The notes under the pieces: model-generated
The model's database searches: none
Told to the model about the DNA's origin: nothing
Seen by the model: only the letters and a program-made list of their open reading frames with translations
Part shown: one piece after another, positions 2 to 34,300 of the stretch
Layout: every line of letters starts with the position of its first letter
How positions within the stretch are numbered: the stretch's first letter is position 1
Position numbers and translations under genes: made by a program
Source of the DNA: Obrimoposthia wandeli
Lineage: Eukaryota
NCBI GenBank assembly: GCA_977020255.1
Contig: CDROCS010000529.1
Location: 124,001 to 188,000, forward strand
Reading direction: 5' to 3'
Length of the DNA: 64,000 bases

Positions 2-343
2 TTATACATGCATTGTTTCTTTTATATATTGTATTTCAATGTTTATTTCTAAATTAGATAAATCACAAATCATTTCAAATAATGATTTGTATTCTCCATA
101 TCGCATCATTATATATTTTAAAACATATTTTATTCTGTCTTTTGTGAAAAACCTTTTCAAGTATCTGATTTGATTTGTATCCATCAACATATCGAATTTT
201 TCTGTAGTTATATGATATTCAATTATACAATCTGTTTCAATTTTCTCAATAACATTAGCATCAATATAGTTTTCTAAACTTTTTGAATAACATATATTAG
301 ATAATTTTATATCAATATCTGATACATATACTTTTCGAATCAA
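2..343 (-). CDS. Hypothetical 113-aa ORF in the Polinton-like gene array (intronless, co-oriented with the BIR and TBP-like genes)
   Basis: ORF track; lies about 30 bp downstream of the BIR gene stop on the same strand; no recognisable motif; TTG start, so the true 5' end may be frameshifted. Confidence 0.4.
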   Translation of the reverse strand: MIRKVYVSDIDIKLSNICYSKSLENYIDANVIEKIETDCIIEYHITTEKFDMLMDTNQIRYLKRFFTKDRIKYVLKYIMMRYGEYKSLFEMICDLSNLEINIEIQYIKETMHV

Positions 344-374
344 TGGTGATGTATCAAAATCAATTTTCTTATTA

Positions 375-727
375 CTAGTTTCTATTATTGGTACATTTGA
401 AACATTTAACTTTAAAAGAAATGGACATGTATGAAAAAATTCATATGTTGCTTCATTGATTTAACATAAAATTCCCATTTGAATAATGCACCTTGACAGT
501 ATATACATGTTTACTTTATTGGTTGAATCATCATCATGTTTATAAAATCCGGCTTTTGCTAAATCATATGCAGATTGTTTCCCCATAAAATGATATAATA
601 ACGATTTCAATCTTTTACTTTCACGTCTATATTTCACATATAAAACTTTCATTTTAGAATAATCTACTTTTCGTCTAACTAAAACATCATTAACAGTTTT
701 ATAATTAAGTATATAATCAACAAGCAT
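375..727 (-). pseudogene. BIR-domain (IAP-like) gene with two single-base frameshifts
   Basis: ORF 461..727 gives RLKSL..DLAKAGFY..D.V. Removing one A near 508-512 and adding one T in the run near 432-438 gives TCIYCQGALFKWEFYVKSMKQHMNFFHTCPFL, an exact BIR C-x2-C-x16-H-x6-C pattern; stop at 375-377. Confidence 0.8.
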
Positions 728-1248
728 TTTTAAAAATCAAATAATTTTCAAGAAAAAATACAATAGACTCGACTTGACAATGATAATCAAAATCTTTAAT
801 ACTGTAAATAATCACTTTTCCACTAGCAAACTCCTTAACACACAGAGGATTAAACTTTAAAATTCTGAGTGCTGAAACAATGCTGGTTCAAACATGCAAT
901 TTCTTCCCATTTCATAGATATCTTATACAAATTAACCTTCTTGTTGATATTCACTAGGATACTTACAGATAGAATACGTTCAAATTCTATATTTTGAACA
1001 TGTTTGATAGGTTGTTTGCAACCCATAATTCTGCATGAGCCTAAATAGTATTAATAATAATAGTAGTAATAATACCTGATGGAAATATAACTATAGTATA
1101 ATCTTTTAACTTTCAACATATTGTATAGGTTTCTTTAATCGGAAAGTTAAGTGACTAACACTTCCCTTAAATTTACCTTTATAATTTATATTGATTATTT
1201 TCCTTATATGATAATAATTTATGATATCACAGACGTATATAGTTTCAT
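717..1248 (-). pseudogene. TATA-binding-protein-like (TBP fold) gene, frameshifted
   Basis: Minus-strand pieces NINYKGKF..LTFRLKKP..VIFPSG/SCRIMGCKQP (repeat 1) and ILSVSILVNINKKVNLYKI..RNCMFEPALF/ALRILKFNPLCVKEFASGKVII (repeat 2; compare TBP YEPELFPGL..LIFxSGKxV); its stop (717-719) overlaps the BIR start codon region. Confidence 0.7.
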
Positions 1249-1339
1249 ATTATCCAATGAGAATCAACAACCAATCAGATTCAAGTAGTCAACTATAACT
1301 ATCAAAACATTTCAGTTTACTCTCATTAATCATGTTCAA

Positions 1340-1845
1340 TTTACAAAAAACCGATTTTGAAGAGCATACAGAAGAGGAAGAACGGAATTTTAAATACAAC
1401 CAAAGTTAACCCGATTCCTATAGATTCTGATGATCCCGAATAAGAAGATATTTTCAAAGAGACCTATTTAATGAATCTGTACCTTATTTTAGCTATAAAA
1501 TGAATTTCCTCAATATGCCTGTTCCATATGAATTTCTATACCCTATTATTCTAAGAAAGTCCAACTTTGATTATGTCATATCAAGGATCCATAATACGGA
1601 TATTAATAATATCAATGCTATTTTCAAAGGAATGAAATTGGATATTAAAATTGAAAACTTTAGTGCTTTCATTAAAGCCGATGAAAATCCGTTCAAAGGA
1701 ATATATAAAAAGACTGAAGAATAATTTCCAAATGCAAATATTGGATTTTATTTATTCAAATTCAAGGATTCAAAGTCGATAAACTCGAGAGACTGAAGCC
1801 TATATGGAGAATTAATGAAGGACATAAAAAAGTTTAATAAATATT
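1340..1845 (+). pseudogene. Decayed hypothetical ORF of the Polinton-like element (core ORF 1500..1724; copy at 31721..31945)
   Basis: Frame continues past the stop at 1724 (FPNANIGFYLFKFKDSK..); a stop near 1795 is a sense codon (AGA) in the duplicate; no motif recognised. Confidence 0.35.
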
Positions 1846-1889
1846 GATTTTTAGTGTGTTATTGTATTTTTACTATAAACAAAAATATT

Positions 1890-2264
1890 CTAAATATATT
1901 CTTTGCCAAATGTACTGTCCAATCATGCAGGGCTCCTCTCTTAGAAGGCTCCGCAAGGGAGACGTTGGTCACTTAAAATCATTAGTTTTTTTAAACGGCA
2001 AGAAATAGCGCAATATTTGAAAAAGGTCTTGAAATCATGCATACTACGCCAAAATGGTTTTGCAGTAAAGAGTACACCCCGGGGGACTTATTACCGTTGG
2101 CGTAGTATGTGTGATTTTGAGACCAAATTTAGGTTAAGATTTGAAATCGTGCATACTACGCCAAAATAGTTTTGCAGTAAAAAAATACTACCAGGTATGT
2201 ACTGACGTTGTATGCAGGATTTCGGGGGTGACGCAGTAGCGTTGTACCGACACTATATACTACT
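1890..2264. repeat. Right terminal region/TIR of a Polinton/Maverick-like element ending ..TATATACTACT (reads AGTAGTATATAG inward on the minus strand)
   Basis: AGTAGT-type terminus is typical of Polintons; internal direct and inverted 21-40 bp repeats (AAATCATGCATACTACGCCAA at 2032 and 2144, inverted at 2097); adjacent to virus-like ORFs; partner TIR not in window. Confidence 0.6.
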
Positions 2265-10333: not shown

Positions 10334-11565
10334 ATGTGCAAAGACCATGAAGTGAGCATTTACTTTGTTTTTGTTTTTATTGAATATTTTTAGAATCGTT
10401 CATCATCTGCTGGACAAGATCCGTCTAGATCTAGATCCCCAGTCTCACGTTCTAGATCTGGTTCAAATCGTGGATCTCCTATGTCTCGTAGTCCAATGAA
10501 GAACTCTTTATCTCCACATGGAGCACGGGATAGTAGATCACCTGTTCGTAGACGTAGTGGATCCAAAAACAAAGCCTCACGCTCTAGATCTGCTTCAAAT
10601 CGTGTATCTCCTATGTCTCGTAGTCCAATGAAGAACTCTTTATCTCCACATAGAGCACAGGATAGTAGATCACCTGTTCGTAGACGTAGTGGATCCAAAA
10701 ACAAAGCCTCACGCTCTAGATCTGGTTCAAATCGTCGTTCAAATGTTTCTCGTAGTCCGGTTAAGAATTATTCAAAAAAACATTCATCTCCATATGAACC
10801 ACGTAGACGTAGATCTCCCAATCGTAGATATAGACGCTCCAGATCCCCAGTGAATCGAAGAGGTGATTTTTCGTCACCTAAAGACCGTAGACACCGAAGA
10901 TCAAATTCACGATCACCACCAAGAAAAAGTGGTAGAGGCCAAAATATCCGTGATAGAGAAAATCCTTCGCCTTCAACATGTATCGGTGTTTTTGGATTGT
11001 CAAAAAGAACTGATGAAAGAGATCTGCACAAATATTTTGATAGATTTGGTAAAATTAAAAGCCTAAATCTGATTAAGGATAAATATACATCTGAATCAAT
11101 GGGTTTCGCATTTGTCTACTACGAAGATGTCGACTCTGCAAGTAAAGCAAAGGATGAAGGATCTGGAGTTGAATTAGATGGTCGCCAAATTCGGGTAGAT
11201 TACAGCATCACAAAAAAGGCCCATTCTCCTACTCCTGGAATGTACATGGGAAAGAAATCGTAAGTTTTATTCATTTTCATAAAACTCAAATTTATAGTTG
11301 AATATACGGAAATGAAAATGTCGTTTTTGTATTGCGAAATAATTAATTAGACTTAGTTTTTATTTTTTAAATGTAGAACATTACAACTTATTATTAAGAA
11401 ATATTCTGAATTTTCATTTCTTTTAGTGTAAGGCGCCAAGGACGTTTCGACTCGCGTGAGGAATCACGGGATTTTCGTGGCCAAAGACGTGACTTTGAGC
11501 GGAGGAGACCGCTTTCTCGGAGTCGGTGCAGTCGGTCGAGATCGCGCAGCTATAGGAGATATTGA
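10334..11565 (+). CDS. tra2: Transformer-2 (TRA2) SR-like splicing factor, copy 1; exons 10334-10351, 10394-11259, 11427-11565; 340 aa
   Basis: RS1-RRM-RS2 architecture; NPSPSTCIGVFGLS..GFAFVYY..LDGRQIRVDYSITKKAHSPTPGMYMG is diagnostic of TRA2; GT-AG introns of 42 and 167 nt keep frame; ends RSRSRSYRRY*; AATAAA ~90 nt downstream. Exon 1 is predicted from splice signals. Confidence 0.95.
10445..10737 (+). repeat. 132-bp (44-aa) tandem repeat, about 2.2 units, inside the tra2 RS1 domain
   Basis: ATGTCTCGTAGTCC at 10481 and 10613; mirrored in copy 2. Confidence 0.95.
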
Positions 11566-15438: not shown

Positions 15439-15886
15439 TTGACAATTCATGCTGATTTATTGCATGCCGTTAAACTAATAAAAATTGAACCTGATAAACT
15501 AATTAGGGACCTGGCTGAAAAATTTATTCGGTTCAAGCAAATTATATTTTAAACAAAATGAAAAGTATTTTAATTTTTGTGACAAGGTTAGTGATGTCTT
15601 ATATGACGGAGTACTTGTCACCGTTTTCCCTAAAATGTTTGGTGTACATTCTAGTTTTAATGATCGTTTTATGAATATCAATACAAATTTACTTAATTGT
15701 TTTAAAGTTATTAAAATATCACAAGATGCCCTGATAAAAGACTTAGCTGAGAAAATTTACTCAATATATGGAACCCGAAAATTATATTTTAATCATTTAG
15801 GTACATCATTTAACTTTGATGATAGGTTAGGTGATGTAATGTTTGATGGCGCCTTAATTAGTGTTTTTCTTAAAGTATTTGGTGGT
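15439..15886 (+). pseudogene. Two tandem ubiquitin-like domains upstream of pPolB; the second ends in Gly-Gly
   Basis: UBL1 TIHADLLHAVKLIKIEPDKLIRDLAEK/GSSKLYF..FNFCDKVSDVLYDGVLVTVFPKMFGV; UBL2 MNINTNLLNCFKVIKISQDALIKDLAEKIYSIYGTRKLYFNHLGTSFNFDDRLGDVMFDGALISVFLKVFGG; length and hydrophobic pattern follow ubiquitin; the units are clearly paralogous. Confidence 0.7.
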
Positions 15887-16453
15887 TCCCCACCACCATG
15901 TAACTTTATAACTATTGTACTAATAATTGTCACGATGTTATGAAAAAATATTATAAGTTTAAAAAGTGGTACATATGTCCCTTGTATGATATATTATTCA
16001 CAAAAAAAATATATATATATATTTTTATTCAAATCATAAAAATCCCTTAACTTACTTTAATACCAAGAAATCATATTATAAACGTAAATCATCATCATCA
16101 CTTTCAAGAAGTAATAAAGTTATAAAACTAGAAACAATTAATAATATAATACCGGTTTATAATTTTGATAATAGTTTTAGTTTCAAAATAGTTGATAGTT
16201 GGTCACGTCTTAATAGTCCAACATTTCCTCCTAATTTTGATTTCACTACATTTTTAAATAATGATGATGAATTAGATAAGCATTTAATAAATCCCTATAT
16301 TTTAATGATTTACTTTATACACATGAAAAGCCATTTGTTGATGAATTATATAATGATTTTATAGCAACTGTAGGCCTTGAAGCAATAACAAGTACTCAAA
16401 TAGGTGGTGTACTTCAAGATAATCTTATTTTTGATACTAAATCTAACCAGAAT

Positions 16454-19400
16454 ATGCTAAAACTGGTTATTAATAATGATATGAAAAATGATTTATTAAA
16501 TAAAATTAATGCATTTGGGCCTTGTAAAATTCAATTTTGTATTCAAGCTCAATTTGTAAACATAGAAAACCAATTTAAAACATGGCATATTAGTTGTAAG
16601 GCTGCAGTTTACGACGATGATTTTATTTTTATTATAACAGATAAGTTAAATAATTGTATTGAAAAATACTCGGAATTGAGTAGTGGTTGGTCAATCCATA
16701 AAATATTACAAATTTCTTTTAAATTAACTAAATTATCCAGTGTTTCGGGTTCTTCATTTATACCAACACCACTTAAATTATTAAATAAAATGGCATTGAT
16801 CAATGTAAAAAACGATGATAATAAATGTTTTCTCTATGCTATTCTTAGTGTTTTAAAACATGATGAAATTTGTCATAGAGATCGAACATCTTCTTGTGAT
16901 CAATATTTAAATGAGTTAAAATGTCAGCCGGGTCCTATGCCTTTAACCTCAATACCTCAATTTGAACGTGATAACCAAATAGCAATTACAGTTTTTAAGT
17001 ATTCTGAAATTAATAGTAAATACCCGATTAAAGATGTGGTGAAAATTCCTGATGTTAGTATAATTTACCGAACAAAACTACGGGAATGTAATCAAATTGT
17101 TAATTTACTTTTGTTAGAAGACCGTAACACTTATCATTATTGTGGTATTCCTAATATAAATAGATTATTTAATTGTCATAGTTATGGTTTACGCCTTTAC
17201 TGGTGTCCGAAATGTCTTTTTGGTTTTCGAACTGGGGCTGCTTATGATAAACATATAATCCATTGCAATTTTAATACTGATACTACAACTTTATTCACTA
17301 TGCCGGATAATAAATATTGTGAATTCACAGATTGGTCAAAGTCAGTTCAACCTCATTTTGTAGTTTACGCTGATTTTGAAAGTGTTTTAGGACCTAATGT
17401 GACTGTTAAACATATTCATACTCCCATTGCAGTTGGAATGTTGTTGAAAAATAATGTTACTGACACAATAGAATACTTTTCGTATTTCGGTTTAGATTGT
17501 GCTATCAACTTTATTAATAAATTAACGGAAATTCTTAATAAAATTGTTGTACTTTTTTGTAGAAATAATATGAACGCACGTCTTATAATGACAAATGAAA
17601 ATCAGGTAGCTTTTCAAGCGAGTCGCATATGTTACCTTTGTTATAAAATCACTAGAAATTTAGTCCGTGGTAATGATCATATTTCAGGTGCATTATTGGG
17701 TGCAGCATGTAATAAATGTAATTTATCTCGTAGATTCGGTAAGTGGCCTATGTTACCAGTACTTTTTCACAACTTAATGGGTTATGATATTCATCATATT
17801 TTAAAATTTTCAAAATTAAAAGGGAAAGGTTATTCAATCATACCCAAATCTATTGAAAAATTTATGGATCTCAAAATAGAATTATTAACTGGAACATTGA
17901 CATTTTTAGATTCATATATTTTTTACCACAACTAGTCTTGAAAGATTGGTTAGTTATCTTCCAAGTTCGCCGTATACATCAAGATATTTTAGTACTGATT
18001 TGTTATCTACTAAAGGTGTTTTTCCCTATGAATATATTTCCAGTGAATCTAACTTGTATGAAGATAGATTACCTCCAAAATGTGAATTTCCTGATAGCGT
18101 TACAGATGATAAATATAATTTAGCTCATACAATGTGGACGAAACTAGCTTGCATTAATATTAACGACTATATGATGGAATATATGCGTCTTGATGTATAC
18201 TTACTTTGTGATGTATTTGAGTATTTTAGACAGAAAGTTAGATTTGATGATAATTTTGAGGATCTTTATTTCTTTAGTATACCCGGTTTTAGTATGTGTA
18301 GTGCAGTAAAATCATTAAAACATAAAGTAGAATTGATACATGATCCGGAAATGTTTAATTTATTTGAAGCAGGTATTAGAGGAGGTATGACTTTTGTTAA
18401 TAAACATTATTGTAAGTCCGATGATAGTACATCACTTCTCTATATAGATGTGAATAACTTATACGGATGGGCTTTAAGTCAACCTTTACTGCATATAGAA
18501 TTTAAATGGGTGCATAATAATTTTGATGATATTTTGAATTTAGTTGGAAGTGAAAAGGATTTAAGTAAAACCGTATGGGGTTTTCTTGTTGAAGTAGATT
18601 TACATATTCCGGATCATATACATGATAAAGTTGATGACTTACCTATTGGACCACATAAGATGTGTCAACCAAACTCAAAAACTCCTAAATTACTTTTAAC
18701 ACATAATGATAAAGAACATTATGTAATACATTTTCGTTTACTACAATTCTATGTTTTTCTTGGTGCTGAAATCTTAAACATTCATAGGGATATTCGGTTT
18801 AGACATGCACCCGTTTTAAAACAATATATAGATTTTAATTCAAACAAGCGGGCAACTAGTGTTAATAAGTTTGAATATGAGTTTTACAAATAAAAAAATA
18901 ATACCGGTAAAACGGTTAAGAATCTTAAGAGGCGACTTGATATTAAATTATGTAATAATGATAAACGGTTTGAAAAATTAGTTTCAAATCCTTGGTTTAA
19001 ACGACATACTCAAATAAATGATGATTTAAATTTAGTTTTTATGCAGAAACAGGAAATATGTTTAAATCGGCCTTCATATATCGGTCAAGCTGTACGTGAT
19101 CTATCTAAATTACGAATGTATCAATTACAATATGTTGAGCTTGAACAATATAGGCAAACTTTTAATTGTAGTATTATAATTGTAGCTATGGACAAAGATT
19201 CTATTTTACTTGAGTGTGTGAATATTAATAAGGATAAATTACTCAAAGAAATGATTAAGGATGGGTATTTAGATACGAATAATTATCCTAAAACACATCG
19301 TTGTATTCTGAAAACTTTAAAGCTGTAATTGGAAAATGTAAAGATGAAAGTGAGGATACTGATTATAATGAATGGGTTTTCTTAAAATGAAATTGTTATT

Positions 19401-19644
19401 CACTTCAAAATAAATTAAGAGCTAAGGGTATTTTTTAAAACAAACTAACTTAAGACATCAAGACTACCTCAATTGTTATGAAAATGAAGAAATTATTAGT
19501 ATTAACCAGTCACGTATAGCATTGATTAACCATCAGCTTCATACAACATTTACTTCTAAAGTTGCTTTAAAATGTTTTGACGATAAAAGGAGATGGGTTA
19601 ATAAGAATAAAAGCCTTGCTTACGGTCATTTTAATTTAACTTAA
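16454..19644 (+). pseudogene. Protein-primed family B DNA polymerase of a Polinton/adintovirus (terminal-protein region, exonuclease with EndoVII-like insert, polymerase), disrupted
   Basis: ORFs 16454..17935, 17946..18893, 19041..19328: NVKNDDNKCF, VYADFES, HNLMGYD, GIRGG, YIDVNNLYGWALSQ, MDKDS (degenerate YxDTDS), DDKR and LAYGH C-terminus; stops, frameshifts and a damaged motif B. Confidence 0.95.
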
Positions 19645-19862
19645 TAATTTCTAAATAAGATATATAGTTAGTTATTGTTGTTGTTATTATTATTTAATGT
19701 CATCATTTGTACACACACTCATTCACTTGTATATATTAATACATCTTTTGTGTTTAATCGCTTTATTTATTATATAGGATTATTTTGATTAGTTGACCAA
19801 TTATATTGAAGTTACGTTTTTATATAATCGAAACACTTTAGTTTTAAAATCATTTCATCATT

Positions 19863-20045
19863 ATGACTCTAAGTACTTTAGACATGTTATGCGCTCTTCG
19901 TATCAATCTTAAAGAAGACATTTTCAAGCTATATACATCTCAATATTTTTCATTATATTGTTCTCCGAAACATTTCGAATTAAGGATAGTAGAACCTTTC
20001 CAATATCATCAACGTAAGATTTTTATTTTAAAATATTTAATATGA
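19863..20045 (+). CDS. Hypothetical small ORF downstream of pPolB (mirror at 28842..29024)
   Basis: ORF track only; position in the viral gene array. Confidence 0.25.
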   Translation: MTLSTLDMLCALRINLKEDIFKLYTSQYFSLYCSPKHFELRIVEPFQYHQRKIFILKYLI

Positions 20046-20179
20046 ATTTAATAGTTATGGGAGATATTCAATACTAATATCATCATGAGACGCCGAATTG
20101 TAATCATATGAATAAATAAATATTTGATTTATTATTTGTCTTTTTCAAGGTTAAAGGTTTACTATAACCAAAAGTAATA

Positions 20180-20374
20180 TAAGTATATAATCTTTGCCAA
20201 AGGTGCTGCCTGGTCTTCTGATGAAGGGCTCCCCTCTTAGGAGGCGCTGCAAGGGAAACTTTGGTAACTTAATTTTTGTTTTAAACAGTAAGATATAGCG
20301 CCATATTTGAAAATGGTCATTAAATCGTGCATACAACGCTAAAATGGTTTTGTAGTAAAGGGTACTCCTACGGG
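20180..20374. repeat. Truncated paralogue of the Polinton subterminal region at 1890-2085
   Basis: Colinear similarity (TCTTTGCCAAA..GGGCTCC..AAATCGTGCATACAACGCTAAAATGGTTTTGTAGTAAAG); cut at 20375. Confidence 0.7.
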
Positions 20375-22961: not shown

Positions 22962-24193
22962 TCAATATCTCCTATAGCTGCGCGATCTCGACCGACTGCA
23001 CCGACTCCGAGAAAGCGGCCTCCTCCGCTCAAAGTCACGTCTTTGGCCACGAAAATCCCGTGATTCCTCACGCGAGTCGAAACGTCCTTGGCGCCTTACA
23101 CTAAAAGAAATGAAAATTCAGAATATTTCATAATAATAAGTTGTAATGTTCTACATTTAAAAAATAAAAACTAAGTCTAATTAATTATTTCGCAATACAA
23201 AAACGACATTTTCATATCCGTATATTCAACTATAAATTTGAGTTTTATGAAAATGAATAAAACTTACGATTTCTTTCCCATGTACATTCCAGGAGTAGGA
23301 GAATGGGCCTTTTTTGTGATGCTGTAATCTACCCGAATTTGGCGACCATCTAATTCAACTCCAGATCCTTCATCCTTTGCTTTACTTGCAGAGTCGACAT
23401 CTTCGTAGTAGACAAATGCGAAACCCATTGATTCAGATGTATATTTATCCTTAATCAGATTTAGGCTTTTAATTTTACCAAATGTATCAAAATATTTGTG
23501 CAGATCTCTTTCATCAGTTCTTTTTGACAATCCAAAAACACCAATACATGTTGAAGGCGAAGGATTTTCTCTATCACGGATATTTTGGCCTCTACCACTT
23601 TTTCTTGGCGGTGATCGTGAATTTGATCTTCGATGTCTACGGTCTTTAGGTGACGAAAAATCACCTCTTCGATTCACTGGGGATCTGGAGCGTCTATATC
23701 TACGATTGGGAGATCTACGTCTACGTGGTTCATATGGAGATGAATGTTTTTTTGAATAATTCTTAACCGGACTACGAGAAACATTTGAACGACGATTTGA
23801 ACCAGATCTAGAGCATGAGGCTTTGTTTTTGGACCCACTACGTCTACGAACAGGTGATATACTATCCCGTGTTCTATGTGGAGATAAAGAGTTCTTCATT
23901 GGACTACGAGACATAGGAGATACACGATTTGAAGCAGATCTAGAGCATGAGGCTTTGTTTTTGGATCCACTACGTCTACGAACAGGTGATCTACTATCCC
24001 GTGCTCCATGTGGAGATAAAGAGTTCTTCATTGGACTACGAGACATAGGAGATCCACGATTTGAACCAGATCTAGAACGTGAGACTGGGGATCTAGATCT
24101 AGACGGATCTTGTCCAGCAGATGATGAACGATTCTAAAAATATTCAATAAAAACAAAAACAAAGTAAATGCTCACTTCATGGTCTTTGCACAT
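22962..24193 (-). CDS. tra2: Transformer-2 (TRA2), copy 2; exons 24193-24176, 24133-23268, 23100-22962; 340 aa, intact
   Basis: Mirror of copy 1 with the same splice sites and no stop or frameshift; six amino-acid differences seen. Confidence 0.95.
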
Positions 24194-28277: not shown

Positions 28278-31200
28278 GATTTTTATTTTAGTATAAAATC
28301 AATTAATTATTTAAAATTACTCAAAACCTAATCCTAACATCAGTATTGTTGTGTTCCTAGTTTAAATAGATTATTTAATTGTCATAGTTATGGTTTACGA
28401 TTTTTTTTTGTGTCCGAACTATGGCTGTTTATGATAAACATAGAATCCATTGTAATTTTAATACTGATACTACAACTTTATTCACTATGCCGGATAATAA
28501 ATATTGTGAATTCACCCCGTAGGAGTACCCTTTACTACAAAACCATTTTAGCGTTGTATGCACGATTTAATGACCATTTTCAAATATGGCGCTATATCTT
28601 ACTGTTTAAAACAAAAATTAAGTTACCAAAGTTTCCCTTGCAGAGCCTCCTAAGAGGGGAGCCCTTCATCAGAAGACCGGGCAGCACCTTTGGCAAAGAT
28701 TATATATTTATATTACTTTTGGTTATAGTAAACCTTTAACCTTGAAAAAGACAAATAATAAATCAAATATTTATTTATTCATATGATTACAATTCGGCGT
28801 CTCATGATATTAGTATTGAATATCTCCCATAACTATTAAATTCATATTAAATATTTTAAAATAAAAATCTTACGTTGATGATATTGGAAAGGTTCTACTA
28901 TCCTTAATTCGAAATGTTTCGGAGAACAATATAATGAAAAATATTGAGATGTATATAGCTTGAAAATGTCTTCTTTAAGATTGATACGAAGAGCGCATAA
29001 CATGTCTAAAGTACTTAGAGTCATAATGATGAAATGATTTTAAAACTAAAGTGTTTCGATTATATAAAAACCTAACTTCAATATAATTGGTCATTTAATC
29101 AAAATAATCCTATATAATAAATAAAGCGATTAAACACAAAAGATGTATTAATATATACAAGTGAATGAGTGTGTGTACAAATGATGACATTAAATAATAA
29201 TAACAACAACAATAACAAACTATATATCTTATTTAAAAATTATTAAGTTAAATTAAAATGACAGTAAGCAAGGCTTTTATTCTTATTAACCCATCTCCTC
29301 TTATCGTCAAAACATTTTAAAGCAACTTTAGAAGTAAATGTTGTATGAAGCTGATGGTTAATCAATGCTATACGTGACTGGTTAACACTAATAATTTCTT
29401 CATTTTCATAACAATTGAGGTAGTCTTGATGTCTTAAGTTAGTTTGTTTTAAAATAATACCCTTAACCCCTAATTTATTTTGAAGTGAATTACAATTTCA
29501 TTTTAAGAAAACCCATTCATTATAATCAGTATCCTCACTTTCATCTTTAAATTTTCCAATTACAGCTTTAAAGTTTTCAGAATACAATGATGTGTTTTAG
29601 GATAATTATTCGTATCTAAATACCCATCCTTAATCATTTCTTATCCTTATTAATATTCACACACTCAAGTAAAAAAGAATCTTTGTCCATAGCTACAATT
29701 ATAATACTACAATTAAAAGTTTTGCTATACTGTTCAAGCTCAACATATTGTAATTGATACATTCGTAATTTAGATAGATCACGTACAGCTTGACCGATAT
29801 ATGAAGGCCGATTTAAACATATTTCCTGTTTCTGCATAAAAACAAAATTTAAATCATCATTTATTTGAGTATGTCGTTTAAAAACCAAGGATTTGAAACT
29901 AATTTTTCAAACCGTTTATCATTATTACATAATTTAATATCAAGTCGCCTCTTAAGATTCTTAACCGTTTTACCAGTATTATTTTTTATTTGTAAAACTC
30001 ATATTCAAACTTATTAACACTAGTTGCCCGCTTGTTTGAATTAAAATCTATATATTGTTTTAAAACGGGTGCATGTCTAAACCGAATAGCTAAAAATATC
30101 TTGATGTATACGCCGAACTTGGAAGATAACTAACCAATCTTTCAAGACTAGTTGTGGTAAAAAATATATGAATCTAAAAATGTCAATGTTCCAGTTTATA
30201 ATTCTATTTTGAGATCCATAAATTTTTCAATAGATTTGGGTATGATTGAATAACTTTTCCCTTTTAATTTTGAAAATTTTAAAATATGATGAATATCATA
30301 ACCCATTAAGTTGTGAAAAAGTACTGGTAACATAGGCCACTTACCGAATCTACGAGATAAATTACATTTATTACATGCTGCACCGAATAATGCACCTGAA
30401 ATATGATCATTATCATGTACTAAATTTCTAGTGATTTTATAACAAAGGTAACATATGCTACTCGCTTGAAAAGCTACCTGATTTTCATTTGTCATTATAA
30501 GACGTGCGTTCATATTATTTCTACAAAAAAGTACAACAATTTTATTAAGAATTTCCGTTAATTTATTAATAAAGTTGATAGCACAATCTAAACCGAAATA
30601 CGAAAAGTATTCTATTGTGTCAGTAACATTATTTTTCAACAACATTCCAACTGCAATGGGAGTATGAATATGTTTAACAGTCACATTAGGTCCTAAAACA
30701 CTTTCAAAATCAGCGTAAACTACAAAATGAGGTTGAACTGACTTTGACCAATCTGTGAATTCACAATATTTATTATCCGGCATAGTGAATAAAGTTGTAG
30801 TATCAGTATTAAAATTGCAATGGATTATATGTTTATCATAAGCAGCCCCAGTTCGAAAACCAAAAAGACATTTCGGACACCAGTAAAGGCGTAAACCATA
30901 ACTATGACAATTAAATAATCTATTTATATTAGGAATACCACAATAATGATAAGTGTTACGGTCTTCTAACAAAAGTAAATTAACAATTTGATTACATTCC
31001 CGTAGTTTTGTTCGGTAAATTATACTAACATCAGGAATTTTCACCACATCTTTAATCGGGTATTTACTATTAATTTCAGAATACTTAAAAACTGTAATTG
31101 CTATTTGGTTATCACGTTCAAATTGAGGTATTGAGGTTAAAGGCATAGGACCCGGCTGACATTTTAACTCATTTAAATATTGATCACAAGAAGATGTTCG

Positions 31201-31340
31201 ATCTCTATGACAAATTTCATCATGTTTTAAAACACTAAGAATAGCATAGAGAAAACATTTATTATCACCGTTTTTTCATTGATCATTGCCATTTTATTTA
31301 ATAATTTAAGTGGTGTTGGTATAAATGAAGAACCCGAAAC
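28278..31340 (-). repeat. Inverted partial copy of the pPolB region (contains ORF 30196..31146) with an ~800-bp internal deletion
   Basis: Reverse complement of 20610-18791 joined at ~30089 to 17991-16745. Confidence 0.92.
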
Positions 31341-34300
31341 TATTGTATAGGTTTCTTTAATCGGAAAGTTAAGTGACTAACACTTCCCTTAAATTTACCT
31401 TTATAATTTATATTGATTATTTTCCTTATATGATAATAATTTATGATATCACAGACGTATCAAGTTTCATATTACCCACTGATAATCAACAACCAATCAG
31501 ATTCAAGTAGTCAACTATAACTATCAAAACCTTTCAGTTTACTCTCATTAATCATGTTCAATTTACAAAAACCGATTTTGAAGAGCATACAGAAGAGGCA
31601 GAACGGAATTTTAAATACAACCAAAGTTAACCCAATTCCTATAGATTCTGATGATACCGAATAAGAAGATATTTTCAAAAAGACCTATTTAATGAATCTG
31701 TACCTTATTTTAGCTATAAAATGAATTTCCTCAATATGCCTGTTCCATATGAATTTCTATACCCTATTAGGCTAAGAAAGTCCAACTTTGATTATGTCAT
31801 CTCAAGGATCCATAATACGGATATTAATAATATCAATGCTATTTTCAAAGGAATGAAATTGGATATTAAAATTGAAAACTTTAGTGCTTTCATTAAAGCC
31901 GATGAAAATCCGTTCAAAGGAATATATAAAAAGACTGAAGAATAATTTCCAAATGCAAATATTGGATTTTATTTATTCAAATTCAAGGATTCAAAGTCGA
32001 TAAACTCGAGAGACAGAAGCCTATATGGAGAATTAATGAAGGACATAAAAAGTTTAATAAATATTGATTTTTAGTGTGTTATTGTATTTTTACTATAAAC
32101 AAAAGTATTCTAAATATATTCTTTGCCAAATGTACTGTACAATCATGCAGGGCTCCTCTCTTAGAAGGCTCCGCAAGGGAGACGTTGGTCACTTAAAATC
32201 ATTAGTTTTTTTAAACGGCAAGAAATAGCGCAATATTTGAAAAAGGTCTTGAAATCATGCATACTACGCCAAAATGGTTTTGCAGTAAAGAGAACACCCC
32301 GAGGGACCTATTACCGTTGGCGTAGTATGCGTGATTTTGAGACCAAATTTAGGTTAAGATTTGAAATCGTGCATACTACGCCAAAGTAGTTTTGCAGTAA
32401 AAAAATACTACCAGGTATGTACTGACGTTGTATGCAGGATTTTGGGGGTGACGCAGTAGCGTTGTACCGACACTATATACTACTTATAATGATAGTCAAG
32501 ATATGTAATTTTTCAAAATTTCGCCTGTGTACAAAACTAAATAAACTTTTATAACGATAAACAGAAAGATAATGTACTCAATTAATCGAAATTTTCACAG
32601 AAAATGTATTTGCAAACATGGAATTTGGTTCAAAAATTAACACTGCCTCGTATTCCCTTTAATTTTCCAAGTTTATATACTTGCTATAAATACTGAAATA
32701 CAATATAAAATAATGCTTTTTAAATATAATTAATGGGCCAAAATTATTTTTAATTGGACATGAAAATAATGTTATTAAATATTATAATTTAGTCTTCGTG
32801 AATCAAAAGTTAAATGAAATTAAGAAATTAGGAAAATACGTGTAATGAACTTGTTTATTAAAATATGAAAAGACAAATAAATACAAAATTAATTGAAATA
32901 AAACGTAAATTTAATAATTTTGCATTATTAAATGCAGAATAACTGACAAACGTGCTAGGTATAATTTTAAATATGAAATATTATAAATTATGTCAAATAA
33001 CCCTTTCTTGTTTTAATAACTCAATTTTATCACTGAATATCTAGCGTCTATTTAAATACGCATTCAATGGAAAATTCACAATTTATGTAAATCATAATGC
33101 ATTTTTTCGTGAATTCTATAGTCATATTTTGTATATTATTCAATATTGTGGAATTGGATCTGTTAAAGTAAGATGTTTATCACTTTTGATAATTTATAAT
33201 TATTTGCCTGCCTTTATTGAACTGTGTAATTAATCTATAATATTTAGCTCTACTTTGTTCAATTAACAGTGCCTCGGATTTTGACGACCAACATACATTA
33301 AATCGCTAATGTCTGTTCTTTTTTTTATTTTCAAATTTTGTCAGAAGGACTTAACAGGTTTAAATTATACTCGGAGAGTTTTTGTGAGTGTTTTAAAGAA
33401 AACAGTTGAATGTATCATGATTAGCAAGCAATTAGTCACATTTCATAATTATCTGACCTTGTTTGTTAATAGTTAATTGATCTATATTTCAATTTATTTG
33501 CTTACGAAACATTTAATATAAATATTATTTGTGGTTGACATTTCAGAATAATCAATTACCTATCATGATAAGGGGAATAATTAATTCTTGTTCACCAGTA
33601 GGTAACAGCTTTTCTTCAGTGGGGTGCGCTGAACTATTATCTCAAAATAATTTTGCTTTGGGTACGCATTTCAGTATGTTAACTTTTTCTGAACCTGTAG
33701 TACAAAACCGTTTGGAACAATCCGGTCAATTGTAACGATTATGAAGAATTTTAGTATCCATTTCCACCTTTATGCTGATTATACGCACCGTTTGTTGATT
33801 TTGATTCTATTGACTGAAAAATAATATTTATCAAATAGCCAAATGGATGAAATCAAGACGATTGAAGATGAATAAAAATAGAACTGAGGCTATATTATTT
33901 ATTTCTTATATACACCATATTAACAAAAAAACTTCTACTTGTCGGAAAATATTATTAATTTGAAAAGCAAAATAAAGAACATCGGTTGCGACTTCGACGG
34001 AAACATTACAGCGAAATGTCAACTTAATAAAGTGACAAGAACAAGCAAAAGTCATGTCAAAAAGATTTATCTAATAAAAATACCTTACTACTGAGATAAC
34101 TACAATTCTAACGCATGCGTTTATATCAAGGAGTGATTTTCATAATTCTTTGCTGATTAATATTCCAGCTTATCAATTAAATTGCTTGCAAACTTTTAAA
34201 ACTAAACTTTCAGAATTATATTTAAATTAAAAATGAGCCAGTACAAATGAATATTTAGGGAAGCTCCATTGGCTGCTGACCAATCCCAGAATTGAATTCC

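Follow-up and report, generated by a model that had tools for sequence, protein, structure and literature searches.

A TBP-derived gene of Polinton elements in Obrimoposthia wandeli, with a predicted mini-intron and a candidate late-promoter word

Background

The TBPs of Nucleocytoviricota usually act together with a viral RNA polymerase. Late TBP mimics are described from the beta- and gammaherpesviruses (KSHV ORF24, EBV BcRF1 and HCMV UL87), where the corresponding promoter word is a TATT box (PMC12529657). Polintons, or Mavericks, are elements with terminal inverted repeats (TIRs) of the end type (AGT)2//(ACT)2, a 6-bp target site duplication (TSD) and genes for pPolB, integrase (INT), ATPase, protease (PRO) and capsid proteins; vertebrate elements are described with eight intronless ORFs and nematode Mavericks with intron-bearing cargo genes (PMC8097293, PMC10748475, bioRxiv 2022.07.12.499685). 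The term 'TBP' is absent from the main texts of these three sources. Planarian Polintons are silenced by piRNAs and desilenced in differentiation (PMC8532177). In a literature search that was weak on subscription papers and RepBase entries, TBP was tied to Polintons, among the papers listed, only as a 'TBP' gene label in the map of a mid-size MELD virus with an adintovirus-like PolB (Starrett et al. 2021, PMC8502044, Fig. 5 legend). In the accessible parts of that article the label stands alone in the text; neither a family nor an analysis of residues, nor an intron, nor a promoter word goes with it.

Here we describe a TBP-derived gene from a stretch of 64,000 nucleotides of Obrimoposthia wandeli DNA (assembly GCA_977020255.1, contig CDROCS010000529.1, positions 124,001 to 188,000, forward strand), referred to below as the window. 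An initial annotation had proposed a TBP-like gene of a Polinton-like element at 717..1248.

Results

The window copy and its sisters

Window positions 1204-717 (minus strand) hold a dead, decayed copy of a TBP-derived gene of approximately 145 codons, arranged as follows:

1076..1204, minus strand: exon 1 of the TBP-like gene, which spans strand S1 through to the first-repeat Phe and is alignable with the N-terminus of intronless homologues
1041..1075, minus strand: predicted spliceosomal intron of 35 nt with GT...AG ends, interrupting the Gly codon of the F-x-S/T-G motif in phase 1
717..1040, minus strand: exon 2, which completes repeat 1 and holds all of repeat 2 of TBP
31341..32484, no strand assigned: second window copy (5' part of the TBP gene, orfX and TIR), a segmental duplicate that is ~98% identical

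The start codon is lost at 1202-1204, exon 1 has a frameshift near 1110, and exon 2 has frameshifts near 910 and 873 and a 3'-end deletion near 744 (at all four of these sites the window is shorter than 19 sister copies). Four motifs can still be read in different frames of the minus strand: DYTIVIFPS (1103-1077), SCRIMGCK (1038-1015), FEPALF (892-875) and FASGKVII (830-807). The Ala of FEPALF is private to the window copy, as relatives read E-P-E-L-F. Both half-repeats can be reconstructed as had been proposed, with the qualification that the first is reduced and lacks both helices in the model of a homologue. The proposed gene is likewise present, but sister copies and homologues place its start at 1204 and the start at 1248 was rejected. 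That a TBP-derived Polinton gene lies at this locus is as good as certain.

A DNA search of the surrounding genome, which is AT-rich, 1.35 Gb in size and animal in its gene content, produced 2465 first-look candidates, 40 of which were scored and were found to be 85-90% identical apart from the window itself; the median identity among sister copies was 89.6% (55 pairs). These copies, designated family A, decay near neutrally, with dN/dS values of 0.45-1.68 in ten pairs chosen for an open exon 2, and both exons are open with a GT donor in just 2/20. It is the family, and not the dead window copy, that carries the interest.

Residence in Polinton elements

The TBP gene is located near one end of a high-copy Polinton/Maverick family. 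The following features adjoin it in the window:

23..727, minus strand: IAP-like gene, broken and cut before the RING; BIR and RING are both present in an open sister copy
1205..1304, no strand assigned: bidirectional early promoter for TBP and orfX, inferred from sequence only (CCAAT at 1254 and 1271, TATATA at 1236, no ATAAACA)
1305..1834, plus strand: orfX, broken here, which travels with the TBP gene in most families (also L066 2024-2389)
1869..2264, no strand assigned: TIR remnant, with the element end ...CACTATATACTACT at 2264 (end type (AGT)2//(ACT)2)

Family A elements have the gene order TIR, orfX (opposite strand), TBP, IAP, orfY, ATPase, basic protein, integrase, mCP, pX-like, MCP, protease, pPolB, TIR. 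Two copies, both internally deleted, are flanked by 6-bp TSDs (TACATT for C625 and ACATTA for C1754). The predicted linkage of this gene to Polinton core genes is borne out by related families, in which TIR-bounded elements of 12-16.5 kb hold TBP together with pPolB, INT, ATPase, PRO and the putative capsid genes; pPolB is complete in families B-F, and family A copies hold just a part of it. When loci were chosen by ATPase, TBP was found within ~2 kb upstream in 9/10, and when they were chosen by polymerase it was found beside pPolB in 10/10. Metagenome contigs show the same links between TBP and Polinton genes, and IMG/VR scans with TBP and ATPase alignments returned no relatives. A single element contains pPolB, an rve integrase, an A32-like ATPase and an adenain-like protease, the last with a weak Pfam match (E 0.004). 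The capsid labels are weak: MCP has a weak PF21738 match (E 0.039) in one homologue, mCP has no Pfam match, and both names are tentative ones based on size and gene order.

The Polinton load of this genome is very high (31344 first-look ATPase and 24442 first-look pPolB candidates), and elements are often nested in each other. The duplicate at 31341..32484 is cut at 31340 by the pPolB gene of another element, another Polinton family is represented at window positions 15503-20368 and 28278-31340 by a broken pPolB gene and a TIR-like end, and at the start of the window the IAP gene borders directly on the tail of a further pPolB. A polymerase related to the broken pPolB carries an endonuclease VII/HNH-like domain. 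The window also contains two uninterrupted 289-aa frames with an RS-rich region and an RRM (PF00076), at 10394-11260 (plus) and 23267-24133 (minus), with a further one at L022 5557-6423. This frame, which we presume to be tra-2-like, is multiplied within large direct and inverted duplications of 6-12 kb, and could have arisen as a retrocopy whose numbers rose along with those of the Polinton remnants around it.

Several neighbouring genes deserve mention. In family B, an IAP gene (BIR and RING) and a dual-specificity phosphatase-like (DSPc) gene flank TBP (L175 1757-2755 and 3866-4651). Among the structure neighbours of orfX in the Atlas are ssDNA-binding proteins of viruses, although every match falls below the bar for naming, and searches of Pfam and PHROG gave no family for it; these weak resemblances hint that orfX is possibly an OB-fold ssDNA-binding protein. 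In most families the start of the integrase gene is overlapped by a short conserved frame, behind an ATAAACA, that starts with MG and has two Cys at its end (L075 3400-3600; L157 4870-5000), and its sequence would possibly suit a small myristoylated virion peptide.

A predicted mini-intron

The insert at 1041-1075 had been described as an AT-rich, microsatellite-like sequence splitting the gene, and in family A its interior is indeed a TAT/TAC microsatellite. An intron is the better reading of it. The insert is found in 20/20 family A copies (26-41 nt, GT start in 19/20, AG end in 20/20, all frame-shifting) and is therefore not a copy-specific lesion. At 45 further junctions from the same genome, an insert is present in 37, always in the same phase-1 Gly codon; 33/37 are GT...AG and 0/37 can be read through in frame. 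These 37 comprise four unrelated sequence types (12, 6, 13 and 5 copies) and one probably mis-called row (L167), which was left in the count. Inserts are also present in young families at 97-98% identity. Among 27 metagenome loci, 15 showed the anchor; 14 of these are intronless and one (contig L075) has an unrelated 40-nt GT...AG insert in the same codon. The host TBP has a 47-nt intron at another position and none at the element site, and a genome search for an intronless processed copy of the family A gene gave 0 matches. Family A alone proves little, but because unrelated sequences share one codon position and GT-AG ends, we consider the insert very probably to be a spliceosomal mini-intron.

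The intron-bearing families are not one clade in a quick-method tree, so both a single gain followed by losses and several gains are possible histories on these sequences. Candidate GT...AG introns of ~40-45 nt were also seen after a Gln codon of orfX, just upstream of the orfX match, in L065, L067, L069, L070 and L072, where the TBP gene is intronless. Introns may be a general trait of early genes in these elements.

The protein

Natural open exon-2 frames of four sister copies passed the Pfam TBP (PF00352) cut-off of 22.9 with 29-41 bits and an intronless relative scored 65.5 bits, while the window's own 66-aa piece alone had no Pfam match. An exon-2 profile of the sister copies retrieves TBP chains in the PDB, and of 7990 candidates that were scored it found 413 proteins; most of the best 120 have a length of 144-165 aa, with 37-54% identity. 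A profile built from 101 homologues identified 59 clusters (50% identity level) at E<=1e-30. In fourteen of the best 150 representatives the sequence starts precisely with the first exon-2 Met (profile position 48), which could reflect a gene-caller effect behind the intron, or contig ends.

The TBP fold that had been proposed was recovered by structure prediction. AlphaFold2 modelled the natural homologue P0002 (using 101 sequences) as a TBP saddle with a pLDDT of 96, and the 44 PDB matches that Foldseek listed with E<=0.001 are to chains that contain TBP (TMq 0.64-0.77). In this model little is missing from the second repeat; in repeat 1 the strands are present and there is no helix of four or more residues.

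Yeast TBP DNA-contact positions were taken from Table 1 of PMC12529657. Pairing of the first strand with these numbers was inferred from repeat and motif symmetry (MAFFT placed this strand differently and hhalign left it unaligned), and on this numbering the equivalents of F116, F207 and E188 are found in 101/101 homologues, those of F190 and N69 in 100/101, and that of E186 is E in 97 and D in 4, while the F99 equivalent is Phe in just 13/101. Of the four DNA-intercalating Phe residues, F116, F190 and F207 are conserved and F99 is not. Other positions of the DNA face are polar or otherwise altered with similar constancy, again among 101 homologues (V71>N in 97, V122>R in 100, T124>M in 101, N159>S in 99, L205>N in 101 and V161 almost invariantly T/S). 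This pattern is mostly repeated in 92 further rows, many of them with an unaligned first strand. The protein has also kept the acidic stirrup, which would serve for docking of TFIIB.

A PF00352 search of the genome gave 19768 first-look candidates, of which 150 were scored. In a quick tree, 70 element-type and 45 cellular-type rows are split by a long branch (SH-aLRT 100), and the host TBPs fall among the cellular ones. Capture from the TBP of O. wandeli itself was rejected, as the host TBP groups with cellular TBPs outside the element clade. Comparisons above the level of single copies point to selection on the element gene: dN/dS was 0.12 for a pair of intronless subfamilies and 0.15-0.36 for pairs of families with unsaturated dS. 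The host TFIIB gene consists of short exons.

A shared upstream word

In an unbiased 7-mer ranking of 70 regions upstream of structural and integrase-block genes, ATAAACA came top with 57/70 (mean 2.5 and maximum 10 in 1000 shuffles); this set included one MCP start mis-assigned as protease, without which it has 69 rows. ATAAACA is found upstream of 56/69 structural and integrase starts (37/45 genome lineages and 19/24 metagenome loci) versus 0/18 TBP starts, counts that are not independent because the lineages are related. It is absent at 13/69 late-block starts, including all three correctly assigned protease starts, and occurs before some orfX and IAP starts (3/32 in the TBP/IAP/orfX group). 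At the TBP gene, a canonical TATA is present in 6/7 genome lineages and 4/11 metagenome loci. The late block of nine copies of one intact family, which count as one family, contains 106 sense versus 0 antisense occurrences, with 0 in pPolB. Where the word overlaps the integrase frame, the encoded amino acid varies (N/H/D/Y) and the DNA word is constant. A role of ATAAACA as terminator was rejected, as it stands behind either terminal gene in 0/9 copies, at positions where AATAAA stands in 8/9 and 9/9.

Discussion

With a probability of roughly 0.68, we propose that the minimal TBP of these Polintons, encoded by a gene with a predicted mini-intron, binds ATAAACA before the capsid, packaging and integrase-block genes and recruits host TFIIB and Pol II. 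The TBP gene would be transcribed early by host TBP and Pol II from a canonical TATA, often with CCAAT, and its transcript would be spliced by the host. The product would recognise (T)ATAAACA through its rewired polar saddle, and the kept acidic stirrup would dock host TFIIB, bring in host Pol II and turn the late genes on. TFIIA, Mot1 and TAF1 bind the repeat-1 helices of cellular TBP, so that in shedding these helices the element protein would have shed their sites. The outcome would be an early-to-late cascade run by one 145-aa factor. The first repeat of cellular TBP reads the 3' half of the TATA box; it is suggestive that word (C for A/T) and protein (V122>R, T124>M, F99 lost) appear to depart most at the same half of the box. 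The initial annotation had offered control of the element's own transcription or mimicry of host TBP as possible roles. The shared upstream word supports the former, and plain mimicry is less likely because the DNA-contact residues are invariantly changed. The element TBP is, on these patterns, probably a late-promoter factor.

The word could instead be read by a host factor, either a forkhead protein or the host TBP/TRF, with the element TBP doing something else. ATAAACA fits the forkhead consensus (RYAAAYA), (T)ATAAAC is one base off the canonical TATA box, there are several paralogues of TBP in the host, and loci chosen by distant ATPase or by PF03175 contain TBP and supplied no TBP-less Polinton as a control. 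However, the forkhead variant GTAAACA is present in just 2/69 promoters and reverse-oriented sites in 0/69, the word peaks 30-49 nt before the ATG (34/59 sites), and its C is retained, with TATAAAC strongly strand-biased (88 vs 3) while the canonical TATAAAA is not (35 vs 37). We regard a host reader as unlikely. It is more doubtful still that the element TBP is a decoy or repressor that titrates host TFIIB or occupies host TATA promoters as part of a host shut-off. The invariant acidic stirrup, the lost repeat-1 helices and the adjoining host-modulating genes (IAP and DSPc phosphatase) are in keeping with such a role, but an invariantly rewired DNA face would be superfluous for a decoy, and a matching word confined to the late block of the element would be left unexplained.

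A last alternative takes the insert for an inactivating microsatellite lesion, or the gene for a fragment of host TBP that was picked up as cargo and is now in decay. The interior of the family A insert, a triplet repeat of variable length, would agree with this, as would the near-neutral decay of that family, its few copies with both exons open, and the scatter of intron-bearing families over the quick tree. We nevertheless consider it very improbable, as the four unrelated insert types in this genome and one elsewhere share codon position and GT-AG ends, young families carry inserts as well, and the host TBP lies apart from the element clade with no intron at this site.

How capsid genes are switched on bears on whether Polintons form virions, and the element TBP and its matching seven-letter word make this testable; ATAAACA could also be used as a late-promoter mark when annotating these elements. 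A broader generalisation, to which we give slightly less than an even chance, is that many animal Polintons form a widespread group of nuclear viruses, whose early/late cascade depends on a single TBP of 145 aa with altered specificity that recognises ATAAACA, binds host TFIIB and has no surfaces for host TBP regulators, and that a mini-intron conserved in several lineages ties their late expression to host splicing. Such a cascade would be smaller than any viral late-transcription system known, and its TBP a naturally occurring case of altered specificity.

Comparison with known systems

The element protein resembles cellular TBP (PF00352; PDB 1mp9, 1ytb and 1cdw) in its saddle fold, its near-complete second repeat and its retention of F116, F190, F207, N69 and E188. 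In contrast to cellular TBP, it is ~30 aa shorter, has a repeat 1 without both helices, does not keep F99, has S/T in place of N159 and has polar residues in place of V71, V122, V161 and L205. Like the TBPs of Nucleocytoviricota, recovered as BFVD matches (e.g. HaV01 A0A1C9C511), it is a virus-type TBP fold encoded by the element itself; unlike them, it belongs to elements without a viral RNA polymerase, and identity to those mostly longer proteins is just 8-22%.

The element families share the TIR end type, the 6-bp TSD and the core genes, with the capsid genes as tentative assignments, with published Polintons and Mavericks, and differ from the nematode Mavericks in that the predicted intron is in a gene conserved across element families rather than in recent host cargo (PMC8097293, PMC10748475, bioRxiv 2022.07.12.499685).

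The herpesvirus vTBPs (PMC12529657) share with the element protein a polar DNA face at V122, V161 and L205 and a non-canonical, TATA-like late word. According to the same source, ORF24 has several domains and a length of 752 aa; F99 and N159 are retained in it, the acidic residues for TFIIB are absent, and it acts together with further activators of the virus. In contrast to this herpesvirus vPIC, the element protein is ~145-150 aa in length with no extra domain and has kept the acidic stirrup, and no homologue of a partner activator was seen in the element gene maps. The two are likely convergent and not homologous lineages. The element TBP may represent a further form of viral TBP mimicry, in a class of elements whose control of transcription has received little study. 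Like the herpesvirus vTBPs, it would be an example from nature of a TBP with a re-programmed sequence specificity.
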